Notes: generated from the letters alone by a model not told the origin. A stretch of DNA of 64,000 nucleotides from Escherichia coli (GCF_013122565.1 NZ_CP053258.1); one strand, 5' to 3'. Numbered from the stretch's first letter, positions 20,559-32,233 are shown. Numbers and translations: made by a program.

Positions 20559-20575
20559 TATCATCTGAATGTATG

Positions 20576-20610
20576 GTTTTATCATTTGTATTTAATATAT
20601 AAATGATAAA
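20576..20610. promoter_or_regulatory. Perfect 10-bp inverted repeat in AT-rich region upstream of sinH
   Basis: tttatcattt-N13-aaatgataaa. Confidence 0.3.
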
Positions 20611-20767
20611 GCCATCTCTTATTGGTTAAATCACTAGTACATGTGAGTGAAATCATTTTGATAAATTTTTAGGAATATATTTAGTTTTTCTGACGTGCCT
20701 TCCTGAATGTTCTGGCATAGAATATTAGAGCTTATTCATCAAATTATCATTGCCACAGGGAAAGTGC

Positions 20768-22942
20768 ATGCTGCGATGGAGTCGCTTTATAATGTTACTA
20801 TTTATCTCTGCTGCAACTCCTGCGGCAGAGATAAATAGTAAGCAAAATGAATCGTTACCTGATTTAGGCAGCCAGGCGGCTCAACAAGTAGAACAAACGG
20901 ATAAGGGTAAATCGTTAAAAGAGCGTGGAGCCGATTACGTCATCGATTCTGCTACGCAAGGGTTCGAAAACCTGACCCCCGAGGCGCTGGAATCTCAGGC
21001 CAGAAGCTATCTGCAAAGTCAAATCACCTCAACCGCGCAATCTTATATTGAAGAGACACTCTCTCCCTACGGTAAGGTCCGTTCGAATCTCTCTATTGGT
21101 CAAGGTGGCGATCTGGATGGTAGCTCCATCGATTATTTTGTTCCCTGGTATGATAATCAAACGACCGTTTATTTCAGTCAATTTTCTGCGCAACGAAAAG
21201 AGGACCGTACGATCGGGAATATCGGAATTGGAGCAAGACATAATTTCGATGAATGGCTTTTGGGTGGAAATATATTTTACGATTATGATTTCACCCGTGG
21301 GCATCGACGTTTAGGTTTGGGGACAGAGGCCTGGACCAATTATTTAAAATTTTCTGGCAACTATTATCATCCGCTCTCTGACTGGAAAGACTCTGAAGAT
21401 TTCGACTTTTATGAAGAGCGCCCTGCGCGCGGTTGGGATATTCGCGCTGAAGCCTGGTTACCTTCTTATCCGCAACTGGGGGGCAAAATTGTCTTCGAGC
21501 AATATTACGGTGATGAAGTCGCCCTTTTTGGTACGGATAATTTAGAGAAAGATCCCTATGCGGTGACGCTAGGACTGAATTATCAACCGGTACCGTTACT
21601 GACAGTTGGAACGGATTATAAAGCGGGGACAGGAGATAACAGCGATGTCAGCATTAATGCCACTCTTAATTATCAATTCGGCGTTCCGCTAAAAGATCAA
21701 CTCGACAGCAATAAAGTAAAAGCAGCCCACTCGTTGATGGGCAGTCGCCATGATTTTGTCGAGCGTAATAACTTTATCGTCCTGGAATATAAAGAGAAAG
21801 ACCCTCTGGATGTGACGTTGTGGCTGAAAGCGGATGCGACCAACGAGCACCCTGAGTGCGTCATTAAGGACACTCCAGAAGCGGCGATCGGGCTGGAAAA
21901 ATGTAAGTGGACCATTAACGCACTGATCAATCACCACTACAAAATTGTCGCTGCGTCATGGCAGGCGAAAAACAATGCCGCCCGCACGCTGGTGATGCCG
22001 GTCATCAAAGAAAATACCATCACTGAAGGCAACAACAACCACTGGAATCTGATACTGCCAGCCTGGCAGTACAGCTCTGACAAAGCCGAGCAGGAAAAAC
22101 TCAACACCTGGCGGGTACGGCTGGCGCTGGAAGATGAAAAGGGTAATCGGCAAAACTCCGGCCTGGTTGAGATCACCGTTCAGCAGGACCGTAAAATTGA
22201 GCTGACCGTCAATAACATTGCTGATGTGCCTGATGAGAATAACCACAGCCATGAAGCCAGCGCTCAGGCGGATGGCGTTGATGGTGTGGTCATGGACCTC
22301 GAGGTGACGGACAGTTTTGGCGATAACACGGACCGCAACGGTGATGCTCTGCCAGAAGATAATCTTGCACCGCAGCTCTACGACGCTCAGGACAAAAAAG
22401 TCACGCTAACCAATAAACCCTGCTCGACCGACAACCCCTGCGTGTTTATTGCCAAACAAGATAAAGAAAAGGGAACGGTAACCCTCTCCAGTACATTGCC
22501 AGGCGTTTTCCGCTGGAAAGCGAAAGCGGCTCCCTACGATGACAGTAACTATGTGGATGTCACGTTTATTGGATCTGATATCGGCGGGCTTAATGCTTTC
22601 ATTTACCGGCTTGGGGGAGCGAAGCCAGTCAATTTGATCGGCAATGATAAAGACCCCCTGCCGCTGGGCAACACGTACCGATTTGTGTTGTGGCGTGATG
22701 CCAACAAAGACGGCGTTTTTCAGCAGTCGGAAAAACTAACCGATGAAGAGATGACTCAGTACGACTACAAGTGGGAATTTACCGGCAAGAGCATCAATGG
22801 CGAAGTAGGTGCGCAGGCGAACACATCCAATGCAGACATTGTAATACCGGCGACCAACCGTGAAGCGGCGCAATCCTATGGTGCAAAAGTGGAAGATGGC
22901 TTGCAGGGTTACGGTTTACGCGTGCTGTACACCAAAAAATAA
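20768..22942 (+). CDS. sinH: Inverse autotransporter adhesin, intimin/invasin family (SinH-like)
   Basis: 724 aa from ATG at 20768 with AGGGA SD (track starts at 20750); signal peptide; N-terminal beta-barrel-like region; C-terminal passenger; gene absent at this site in K-12. Confidence 0.8.
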   Translation: MLRWSRFIMLLFISAATPAAEINSKQNESLPDLGSQAAQQVEQTDKGKSLKERGADYVIDSATQGFENLTPEALESQARSYLQSQITSTAQSYIEETLSPYGKVRSNLSIGQGGDLDGSSIDYFVPWYDNQTTVYFSQFSAQRKEDRTIGNIGIGARHNFDEWLLGGNIFYDYDFTRGHRRLGLGTEAWTNYLKFSGNYYHPLSDWKDSEDFDFYEERPARGWDIRAEAWLPSYPQLGGKIVFEQYYGDEVALFGTDNLEKDPYAVTLGLNYQPVPLLTVGTDYKAGTGDNSDVSINATLNYQFGVPLKDQLDSNKVKAAHSLMGSRHDFVERNNFIVLEYKEKDPLDVTLWLKADATNEHPECVIKDTPEAAIGLEKCKWTINALINHHYKIVAASWQAKNNAARTLVMPVIKENTITEGNNNHWNLILPAWQYSSDKAEQEKLNTWRVRLALEDEKGNRQNSGLVEITVQQDRKIELTVNNIADVPDENNHSHEASAQADGVDGVVMDLEVTDSFGDNTDRNGDALPEDNLAPQLYDAQDKKVTLTNKPCSTDNPCVFIAKQDKEKGTVTLSSTLPGVFRWKAKAAPYDDSNYVDVTFIGSDIGGLNAFIYRLGGAKPVNLIGNDKDPLPLGNTYRFVLWRDANKDGVFQQSEKLTDEEMTQYDYKWEFTGKSINGEVGAQANTSNADIVIPATNREAAQSYGAKVEDGLQGYGLRVLYTKK

Positions 22943-30000: not shown

Positions 30001-32149
30001 GCTACGCGACACTTCAATAAGCGCCACGATGGATGTCATTTTCACGGTGATAACCAGTCCCGACTCACCGAAAGCAAAATACTGGGGTCATATGCCCGAC
30101 ACGTTTACCAGCAGTGCGGGGGTGACCTTTAAACGGCCGCTACTGGCAGCCGAAGCGACCTCCGGGTCCTCGGTTGGCAGTAATAATGAGTCGTGGTCAT
30201 ACATTGGTATTAACGAAAGAGCTACGTCGGATTGCTCACTGGAGTATCAGCCGCGTCTTAATGAGTTACAGGGGTTATATAACGATCATCCTGGCGGGGC
30301 CATACAGACGGATCTGGGGTTACCTGTAGCTGCCGGAAGTGGAAACTGGTGGGCTTATGAAATGAGTATGCCTAACCCCAGCGGGTCGGTGTGGTTTTAC
30401 GGCATCATTAATTTGAAAACGGGACAATCGTCGACCACGTCGAGTGGATTCGCTTTAATGCTCTGCCTGACGCAGCCGCATACGGTACCGGCAAGCCTTA
30501 CACTGTCATCAACCGCCTACGATGAAGGCAGAACCGCCAGCAATGGTGGCACACCTACGTCATCTGTGAAAAAAGGTGAGACGCTTCCCTTAGTGGTGAC
30601 GATCAAAGATGCCAATGGTAACCCCGTTGGCGGCGAAGGCGTTACGCTCAAGCGCGCGCAGGCGAAAAGCCGTTCAGGTATCTCTGTCTCCCCCACTACC
30701 GCCGATGATCTTATTTTAAATGAAGTCACACCGGAATCAGCCAGCTTTTCCTTCGCCGCGGATTTGGCATCATGGAGCGGCATCACCGGCAGTGACGGCA
30801 CTGTAACGTTCAATATTACACAAAAAAATACAATCGGCCTGGTAACGCCGTTTACAGCCTCATTGGGGCGAAATCCGCAGGTCACCGCCAACCAGGACCT
30901 GATGTTCACGGTGGTAACCAGCCCGGATTCGCCGAAGGCAAACTACTGGGGGCATATGCCAGCAACCTTGACGGCAGTGAATGGTGCGGTATTTGAACGC
31001 CCGAAATTGTGGAGTGAACTGCCATCGACCTCCGGCGTCGGCAAGATCAATAACAATAATGAGGACTGGCCGTACTATTCACCGACAAAAAAATCTGATG
31101 AGAGTGTGACCCCTTGCGAAGTGGCAAGACAGCCTCTGCTTAGTGATTTAAATTCGCTGTCTGCGCGTTATCCGAATAACTCCTTCGCTGCTGAAACGGG
31201 CTGGTCTGTGTATTACACCTGGTGGGCAGAGGATAAATCCGCCGCGGGTAAAGATCAGTCGGTGGATTTGAGAGATGGCACGCTGTATACGTATGCATCA
31301 GGAGCATTTCAACCTTGCCTGGTTAACGCGCGTTCAACTGTTTCTAGCGTCACACTTACCTCAACGGCGTTTGACGCTACCACTCAGGCGGCGAAAGTGA
31401 AAAAAGGCGAAGCCATGCCGGTGACGGTCACGGTGAAAGACAGCGCCGGGAAAACGGTGCCGAATGTGGCTTTTACCCTGAAACGCGGTGATGCTGCGCC
31501 AAGAAACCCTGGTATGGCCTTGTACGGTGATGTGGATGCGATGGATGACCTGACCGTTCAACCGACATCGGGAGCGGCGGTGACGTGGTCTGAAAGTGGC
31601 AACTTGCTACAGGGGACCACTGGCTCTGACGGCACCGCGACGTTTATGATTAAACAGGATCATTCGCCGGGCTATAAAACCCCTTTGACGGTCACGTTGG
31701 ACAATAACACCAGCATCACTGCGACAATGGACGCTATTTTCACCGTCGTGACCAGCCCGAATGTCTCAAGCGCCTATTACTGGGGGCACATGGCAGATAC
31801 GACCACGGTGAACGGTAAAACACTGCATCGCCCGTTGTTGGCATCGGAGCTACCTGCGAATGCTTCTTCCCCAGCCACGCCTGACGTAAACAATGAAGCC
31901 TGGGCTATGGGGCATATGGTGGATTCAAGGAATTGGGATATCGAGGCGCAGTGTGGCAGCTTGACCAACGCGCCAAACGATGACGACTTAATGGGTCTGT
32001 ATACTAACTTTAGTTCGCTGGGTTGGCCTGCATCCCCGAGTTTTCCTTACTTATCTTCTCAGAGATGCGGCGTGTTTGAGAACAGTGGACAACAGGACTG
32101 CGCTATTGCGCCAGGCAACACAAAAGGTTTTGTGACTTGTACCCAATAA
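24095..32149 (+). CDS. ratA: Giant repetitive surface/secreted protein (RatA-like)
   Basis: 2684 aa; signal peptide; nine ~275-aa repeats each with F-T-V-x-T-S-P-D...W-G-H-M and two conserved cysteines. Confidence 0.85.
24990..31830 (+). repeat. Nine imperfect tandem coding repeats of ~810-860 bp inside ratA
   Basis: ccagcccggat...tgggggcatatg recurs near 25045, 25855, 26660, 27505, 28345, 29205, 30055, 30915, 31755. Confidence 0.85.
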
Positions 32150-32157
32150 GATGACCA

Positions 32158-32233
32158 TGCCGATAAGGCGTTTGCGCCGCATGAGCCGGGAGCCTGTACC
32201 GGATGCGATGCTTACGCATCTTATTCGGCCTAC
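32158..32233. repeat. BIME/REP pair between ratA and xseA
   Basis: gccgataaggcgtttgcgccgcatg and ccggatgcgatgcttacgcatcttattcggcctac. Confidence 0.6.

Follow-up and report, generated by a model that had tools for sequence, protein, structure and literature searches.

The closest described relatives of the locus treated here are the CS54 island of Salmonella and a three-gene cluster of Escherichia coli that goes by the names iatB and 'ila'. The locus itself occupies positions 20559-32229 of a 64,000-nucleotide (nt) stretch of E. coli DNA (GCF_013122565.1, NZ_CP053258.1; called the window below), lies between yfgJ and xseA, and comprises sinH, sinI and a ratA-like gene. CS54 holds shdA, ratB, ratA, sinI (sivI) and sinH (sivH), according to Kingsley et al. 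2003 as cited in later papers. The cluster sinH-sinI-ratA of uropathogenic E. coli (UPEC), named 'ila' for intimin-like adhesin, is said to derive from CS54 in PMC12928451 and PMC12525524, and its deletion is reported in these papers, citing Shea et al. 2022, to attenuate UPEC in mouse urinary tract infection (UTI) and bladder invasion. sinH and sinI are co-transcribed (PMC12525524). Of the 126 genomes studied by Goh et al. 2019, 35% had iatB, which corresponds to sinH; among B2 strains it was present in 37 of 39, and a SinI-like gene was noted downstream of it (PMC6714894). Xing et al. 2023 report sinH from all F and G strains (100%), 98% of B2 strains and 67% of D strains; they also noted that the allele of sequence type 131 (ST131) is divergent (PMC9937491). 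SinH, or IatB, is displayed at the cell surface and supports biofilm formation (PMC6714894), and surface localisation and vaccine protection have been reported for alleles other than that of the window (PMC9937491). The protein is a candidate vaccine antigen against extraintestinal pathogenic E. coli, and the cluster contributes to mouse UTI.

Two further systems bear on how the proteins might work. The ZirT/ZirS/ZirU system of Salmonella couples a translocator resembling inverse autotransporters to Ig-like exoproteins encoded with it; a barrel protein is followed by barrel-less partners with signal peptides, as in the window, and the likeness of the Sin/Rat proteins to ZirTSU has already been drawn (PMC4943183, PMC6714894); Heinz et al. 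2016 proposed SinI and Rat-like proteins as substrates of inverse autotransporters (PMC4943183). InvE of Yersinia pseudotuberculosis (PDB 5n40) is an inverse autotransporter with one tip, made of a BIg21 + InvE_AD domain pair.

Compared with these systems, the window very probably carries the chromosomal sinH-sinI-ratA (iatB/'ila') adhesin locus, that is the three-gene core of CS54, as a rare, intact allele at its ancestral site, a reading drawn from sequence and structure comparison. It shares with iatB and UPEC 'ila' the same three genes, their order, the der/yfgJ-xseA site, the names given by the NCBI Prokaryotic Genome Annotation Pipeline (PGAP) and the NCBIfam models, and differs from the 'ila'/iatB loci of B2 and ST131 types in being a rare, diverged allele. 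With Salmonella CS54 it shares the left junction der-yfgJ, the order and orientation of sinH-sinI-ratA, and the domain architecture, but CS54 also has ratB and shdA, both absent from the window, where a single Rat gene is followed by xseA; the locus is thus the three-gene core of the 'ila' type and not a full CS54. The xseA side of CS54 is taken from the literature, since the Salmonella locus that we compared covers der to ratB. A preliminary description of this DNA had presented the segment as the E. coli counterpart of CS54 at the same junction, and the common order der-yfgJ-sinH-sinI-ratA bears this out. It is not a new counterpart, because the locus is already described and annotated, as iatB/SinH, as 'ila' and as a vaccine antigen. 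What the present analysis adds is wider bounds for the haplotype, a RatA of nine modules, a conserved box in the leader, an N-terminal motif shared by SinI and RatA, and the rare intact allele itself.

The interval 20559-32229 is exactly the DNA between the yfgJ and xseA stop codons, and the coordinates of the preliminary description are exact in that sense; as the extent of the divergent sequence they are too narrow, because the diverged block reaches from the der stop codon to the 3' end of xseA. Three long co-directional open reading frames (ORFs) fill the interval, as had been described, with gaps of 54 bp between sinH and sinI and 120 bp between sinI and ratA, neither of them with a called terminator-like site. 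They are preceded by the AT-rich leader of about 200 bp that the same description had noted (Table 1). In K-12 MG1655, where yfgJ and xseA had been described as adjacent, the two genes stand tail to tail with a 4-bp overlap and without sinH, sinI or ratA; the three genes were looked for at this site in K-12, and the site is empty. E. coli strain 122 has the same arrangement, tail to tail with a 4-bp overlap and nothing between. The flanks of the window are ~97.4-97.9% identical to K-12 and ~99% to the best complete genomes, with up to 99.0% identity to complete E. coli chromosomes for window bases 33000-56000. PADLOC returned no defence-system match, and Rfam no match inside the island.

Each of the three proteins scores above the curated cut-off of its NCBIfam model, in line with the names first given to them, and similarity to SinH, SinI and RatA or to the intimin/invasin family was found for all three. 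SinH reaches 1465.1 bits against the SinH equivalog model NF033423 (cut-off 999, E = 0, full-length coverage). We take its start as the ATG at 20768, equivalent to the PGAP start, where the mechanical ORF start is an upstream TTG at 20750. The protein consists of a signal peptide, a beta-barrel at amino acids (aa) 62-335 (Pfam IAT_beta, PF11924, E 3.7e-107) and a C-terminal passenger of ~385 aa in which Pfam finds no domain. The barrel matches the solved structures of invasin (4e1t, 5e-72) and intimin (4e1s, 2e-64), and by its sequence SinH is a type Ve inverse autotransporter with a predicted outer-membrane barrel of the intimin/invasin type. The alleles diverge most in the last passenger domain (aa 601-724), where identity is 85% with the B2 type and 74% with the ST131 type. 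SinH domain 3 is the vaccine fragment, and its identities of ~85% (B2) and ~74% (ST131) bear on estimates of vaccine coverage. The first passenger domain (aa 341-470, window 21788-22177) is 94-97% identical between E. coli and Pseudocitrobacter, against 84-85% for the barrel and 51-52% for the signal and N-terminal region in the same comparison; in these alignments its conservation is unusually strong for a domain predicted to be surface-exposed.

SinI scores 321.9 bits against NF040711 (cut-off 165, E 4.6e-96). Pfam finds no domain in it and no IAT_beta barrel, and there is a weak match to the ZirU family (1.5e-4). There is homology between its C-terminal ~110 aa and the C-terminal ~100 aa of SinH. 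An AlphaFold2 (AF2) model built from 41 homologues has a mean predicted local distance difference test score (pLDDT) of 80.5 and two beta-rich domains, of which the second is homologous to the last passenger domain of SinH. Foldseek with the model gave only non-significant matches, to immunoglobulin (Ig)/fibronectin type III-like folds, and a PDB search with the single sequence or the 41-sequence profile gave no match; that SinI is Ig-like is therefore plausible, but no more than that. SinI has no canonical lipobox, its 'AGYC' having Y at position -1. In the signal-peptide region of the 41 homologues (aa 19-29), A19, G20, C22, P25 and A29 are invariant and Y21 is nearly so; the conserved Cys lies within a supposedly cleaved signal peptide.

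The RatA-like protein scores 5225.5 bits against NF011844 (PRK15316; cut-off 3870, E = 0) and falls below the cut-offs of both Salmonella equivalog models (RatA, NF011843, 2067 vs 3700; RatB, NF011842, 2256 vs 4079), so that by NCBI thresholds it is classed as a homologue, not an equivalog, of Salmonella RatA/RatB. It has a predicted signal peptide, an N-terminal region of ~190 aa without a Pfam domain, and then nine BIg21 + InvE_AD modules, which are also marked by nine 'TSPD..WGHM' landmarks spaced about 268-288 aa apart. Each module corresponds to the BIg21 + InvE_AD tip of InvE, and the N-terminal 465 residues match Yersinia InvE (5n40) by sequence (3.7e-29) and by fold (9.8e-21), with Ig domains of intimin and FdeC ranking after InvE in the fold-search list. 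RatA differs from InvE in lacking a barrel of its own and in carrying nine tips in tandem; by sequence and fold comparison it is a chain of nine InvE-type tips, each an Ig domain with an adhesion domain. Pairwise identity among the modules is no more than 28-44%, which argues that the duplications are old. The number of Rat modules ranges from 6 to 9 across the loci compared, and the single protein of the window (2,684 aa, nine modules) is larger than either Salmonella RatA (1,865 aa) or RatB (2,435 aa). The remark in the preliminary description that the function of RatA is essentially unknown needs one amendment, since a deletion study of the UPEC cluster exists (cited in PMC12928451); otherwise it stands. 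We considered whether the name refers to RatA (YfjG), the ribosome-association toxin of K-12, and rejected this: the proteins are unrelated and only the name collides. The same collision is present in Table 1 of PMC3680342.

A megablast search with the leader, sinH and sinI matched 1,747 of 5,426 complete E. coli genomes (32%), all on chromosomes and none (0) on plasmids. With ratA, 948 of the genomes searched were matched, a lower count because some ratA alleles are too diverged for megablast; surveys of presence and absence by nucleotide BLAST will likewise undercount carriers on account of the island's deeply diverged haplotypes, which are common to several genera. The allele of the window, at 96-97.5% nt identity, occurs in just 10 of the 5,426 genomes and is thus rare. 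The ten carriers come from pig, cattle or beef, poultry, pigeon, bear and human, and their genomes are small (4.57-4.86 Mb). In a draft E. coli genome the island is present at 99.2% identity with the same allele intact and a RatA-like protein of 2,683 aa, and NCBI holds a protein 100% identical to the SinI of the window; PGAP routinely gives the same annotation in carrier genomes. SinH, SinI and RatA are 92%, 86% and 81% identical to their counterparts of the B2 type (O6:K2:H1), and 88%, ~65-68% (sinI is frameshifted there) and 66% identical to those of the ST131 type. Against Salmonella the values are 72% for SinH, 44% for SinI and 41% for RatA, with 48% to RatB.

The full order der-yfgJ-sinH-sinI-ratA-xseA-guaB recurs in E. 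whittamii, Escherichia sp. E1V33 and MOD1-EC7003, and beyond Escherichia in three Pseudocitrobacter species, Citrobacter sp. MGH106 and two Superficieibacter species. An E. albertii contig shows yfgJ to ratA only and ends there, and the Salmonella enterica locus reads der-yfgJ-sinH-sinI-ratA-ratB in the same order and orientation; it was found through a protein search with SinI and a contig look-up, the patterns used to scan for SinH being specific to E. coli. The recurrence of this gene order in several genera favours an old locus that some E. coli lineages have lost. In Citrobacter sp. MGH106 (~6527-9566) and a Superficieibacter sp. (~4705-9587), der and yfgJ are separated by ~3-5 kb of additional DNA.

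The boundaries of the diverged sequence do not coincide with those of the three genes. Nucleotide identity to the empty-site haplotype drops from ~100% to 48-69% right after the der stop codon, so the diverged block starts at yfgJ and not at 20559. At the aa level, YfgJ of the window shares 66-68% identity with the protein of E. coli strains whose site is empty (K-12, strain 122), 76% with its Salmonella counterpart and 86-100% with those of other carriers of the island. At the other end, the last part of xseA is diverged as well (Table 1), and the XseA proteins of carriers (458 aa) and of empty-site strains (456 aa) differ at the C-terminus. Judged from these alignments, the diverged block runs from the der stop codon into the 3' end of xseA. 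Because the divergence reaches into both yfgJ and xseA, we infer that 'island' and 'empty' are two old haplotypes of the whole der-to-xseA interval, which have probably been exchanged by homologous recombination. An old locus of the Enterobacteriaceae would then have been lost, or replaced by the empty haplotype, in many E. coli lineages, and its alleles would be exchanged through homologous recombination within the core genes on either side rather than carried by a mobile element. The ST131-type island (E. coli uk_P46212) is 84.8% identical to that of Pseudocitrobacter vendiensis over 13.1 kb, where the flanking core genes are 80-82% identical; the island of the window shows 64-73% identity in the same comparison. 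These figures suggest that the allele lineages of the island are older than the genera or else have passed from one to another.

Around the start of the island, a 500-bp composition window at 20500 has a GC content of 0.38, against 0.49-0.56 around it. The leader contains an AT-rich hairpin, which could be the yfgJ terminator or a protein-binding palindrome, and an 18-nt box, TTTTAGGAATATATTTAG, which occurs once in the window against 0.03 occurrences expected. The box is kept 80-100 nt 5' of the sinH ATG in Salmonella, Pseudocitrobacter, E. albertii and Superficieibacter, among which the leader outside the box does not align; its conservation makes it a candidate regulator-binding site or promoter element. 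No consensus sigma-70 promoter was called in the sinH leader. At the other end of the locus, between the ratA and xseA stop codons, a palindromic element folds as a stable hairpin (-39.9 kcal/mol, z = -2.9) and carries the motif CTTATYCGGCCTAC, of which the window has 4 copies where 0.01 would be expected; we take the element to be repetitive extragenic palindromic (REP)-like, after the E. coli REP consensus. As to expression, overexpression of LeuO raised the iatB transcript ~15-fold in strain SMS-3-5 with no detectable protein, and in a wild-type strain the IatB protein was undetectable in all laboratory conditions tried, LeuO overexpression included (PMC6714894). The same study describes the locus as silent in laboratory culture and responsive to LeuO, with which the AT-rich leader fits.

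Two other accounts of the locus have to be weighed. Reviews term it a horizontally acquired island (PMC12525524), and its patchy presence (1,747 of 5,426 E. coli genomes), its AT-rich leader, its strongly divergent alleles and the slightly closer match of the ST131-type island than of the flanking core to P. vendiensis all agree with a mobile pathogenicity island recently acquired between yfgJ and xseA. We nonetheless regard recent acquisition as very unlikely. There is no integrase or transposase ORF (>= 80 aa) in the interval, where all other ORFs overlap the three genes, no insertion sequence there, no tRNA anywhere in the window, and no direct or inverted repeat of at least 11 nt common to both junctions, which agrees with what had been noted by eye. 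GC content, GC content at third codon positions and codon usage of the island match those of the neighbouring core genes, only the 209-bp leader being AT-rich. The same site and gene order are found in Salmonella and at least four other genera, the island was never on a plasmid in the genomes surveyed, and the spread of the divergence into yfgJ and xseA, with no sharp attachment site, is what homologous recombination or long co-divergence leaves behind. The preliminary description had called the segment an old locus lost in K-12, and multi-genus synteny, native codon usage, the empty K-12 site and the lack of mobility signatures support this. The second account holds that the locus is a silenced, decaying remnant without current function in the strain of the window. 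That IatB goes undetected in wild type even with LeuO overexpression (PMC6714894) and that the leader has no called consensus promoter would suit it, and against an intact, functional locus it also counts that ratA of MB53, a near relative carrying the allele of the window, has an internal stop and that sinI is frameshifted in the ST131-type strain. We consider a remnant improbable, given that all three ORFs are intact in the window, one of them 8,055 nt long, that the draft genome has the same allele intact and the remaining complete genomes with this allele match along the whole of ratA, that motifs and domains are conserved across genera, and that mouse phenotypes and vaccine protection have been reported for other alleles (PMC9937491, PMC12928451).

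The intact adhesin locus thus favoured encodes two proteins, SinI and RatA, that lack a barrel domain and start with what looks by eye, under the AXA rule, like a signal peptide. In 15 of 15 loci from several genera, the predicted signal peptide is immediately followed in both proteins by the motif W-x5-7-[ST]-[TGAD]-x-x-[FI]-x-G-[TS]-x-P, whose W, G and P are W34, G45 and P48 in SinI of the window and W32, G44 and P47 in its RatA. In SinI of the window it reads AW-IDSGETNIFQGTIPW; other loci have a second type, NLKxGxWQ..STGxIxGTxP, and throughout the 15 loci the type co-varies, in that SinI and RatA of one locus carry the same one. SinI, RatA and RatB of Salmonella all carry the motif. When 5,684 ORFs were scored with a hidden Markov model (HMM) of the motif built from SinI alone, 13 RatA N-termini ranked ahead of all unrelated ones, with E from 4e-5 to 0.39 and at the same position. 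The claim of a shared motif rests on this comparison across loci and not on the pair in the window alone. With the first 200 aa of RatA as query, the only proteins matched were fragments of close relatives. We found no report of the shared motif in the literature searched.

Since SinI and RatA have no barrel, and SinI no canonical lipobox, they would need help to cross or to attach to the outer membrane. In the mechanism that we consider, SinH would bring the two proteins to the cell surface or keep them there, by way of the shared motif and in a two-partner arrangement like that of ZirT and ZirS, which would make RatA a long, multivalent adhesin. From the sequence data and the ZirTSU analogy, SinH-dependent export or anchoring of SinI and RatA through the motif seems to us quite possible, if short of probable; that the motif, which is predicted to be disordered in each protein modelled singly, is a dedicated recognition or docking tag by which SinH exports or holds its barrel-less partners is more doubtful. 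The likeness to ZirTSU includes SinI being beta-rich (as predicted) with its weak ZirU-family match, and RatA being Ig-like; the partner that resembles a passenger is SinI only, not RatA, whose N-terminus shows no similarity to the SinH passenger (z = 0.5). The systems differ in that dependence of secretion on ZirT has been shown, whereas for the Sin/Rat proteins the like is a proposal, and in that RatA is a giant multi-module protein. If the mechanism is right, type Ve secretion would have in SinH-SinI-RatA a genuine two-partner-like branch whose signal can be defined, and the two co-varying motif types would mark matched cassettes.

The alternative is that SinH alone works as a conventional adhesin while SinI and RatA are exported in some other way, for instance through a type II secretion system (T2SS), or stay periplasmic, in which case the shared motif would serve that other export route or folding. 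IatB alone, without its partner, mediates surface display and biofilm formation in K-12 (PMC6714894), and InvL of Acinetobacter, a barrel-less, invasin-like adhesin, is a T2SS substrate (PMC9245377). The motif HMM has no match in SinH itself, and the most variable SinH domain (aa 601-724) shows no clear co-variation with the SinI motif type. Several further points tell against export through SinH: RatA of the window scores just E = 0.39 with the SinI motif HMM, neither the fold search nor the PDB profile search of SinI gave a significant match, pairwise alignment of the SinI and RatA N-termini of the window alone is not significant (z = 2.2), and the motif region has pLDDT < 50 in both AF2 models (SinI and RatA), where the segment may be a peptide that folds only upon binding. 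SinH-dependent export of partners is put forward only as a hypothesis in PMC4943183 and PMC6714894, and Salmonella ratA and sivI mutants are listed in PMC3680342, citing Kingsley 2003, as having no virulence phenotype. On the other side, sinH, sinI and ratA are tightly linked in every genus examined, the C-terminal domains of SinI and SinH are homologous, ZirT exporting ZirS and ZirU is a precedent (PMC4943183, PMC6714894), and the window contains no T2SS genes, with which a T2SS elsewhere in the genome remains compatible; we also counted the absence of terminator-like sites in the intergenic gaps toward the partner hypothesis. SinH acting alone is, on this evidence, possible, and somewhat less than an even prospect. 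For export or anchoring through SinH, as published, the motif data are support, not proof, and the motif offers a concrete handle on the long-standing idea that proteins of the ZirT/SinH type export their co-encoded partners.

Table 1. Features of the sinH-sinI-ratA locus and its borders (window coordinates)
Feature	Position	Strand	Description
yfgJ	20343-20558	+	zinc-ribbon protein, 71 aa; allele linked to the island
sinH leader	20559-20767	+	209 bp, GC ~0.29
AT-rich hairpin in leader	20573-20615	+	19-bp stem (G-T pairs allowed), starting 15 nt past the yfgJ stop
Conserved box TTTTAGGAATATATTTAG	20667-20684	+	18 nt, 84-101 nt upstream of the sinH ATG
sinH (= iatB)	20768-22942	+	724 aa, predicted type Ve inverse autotransporter
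sinI	22997-23974	+	325 aa, predicted Sec-exported partner protein, no barrel; starts 54 bp after sinH
Motif in SinI, aa 29-50	23081-23146	+	motif length ~20 residues
ratA (RatA-like)	24095-32149	+	2,684 aa; ORF of 8,055 nt, intact
Motif in RatA, aa 29-50	24179-24244	+	motif length ~20 residues
REP-like palindromic element	32190-32233	+	between the ratA stop and the xseA stop
Diverged xseA 3' end	32230-32500	-	51-71% nt identity over the last ~200-300 nt, then 83-100% mosaic
xseA	32230-33606	-	right-hand neighbour of the locus

Outside the locus, E. coli UTME-7, which has an island of the window type and the closest right flank, differs from the window at the junction of pbpC and ndk, where it carries a four-gene cluster of the dimethyl sulfoxide/selenate-reductase family (6484-11159) that the window (11137-11284) lacks. 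In the same strain, hyfB, hyfD, hyfF and hyfI of hydrogenase-4 (25265-33001, about 56400-64000 of the window) are annotated as pseudogenes, with frameshifts or an internal stop. Near its left end, at 949-2613 on the minus strand, the window carries three tandem copies of the small RNA (sRNA) ryfA (RF00126, 314-324 bits), alternating with two copies of the IS128 sRNA (RF00125) at a period of ~680 nt. K-12 has a single ryfA, and in Salmonella ryfA/ryfB is the TimP/TimR type I toxin-antitoxin pair.

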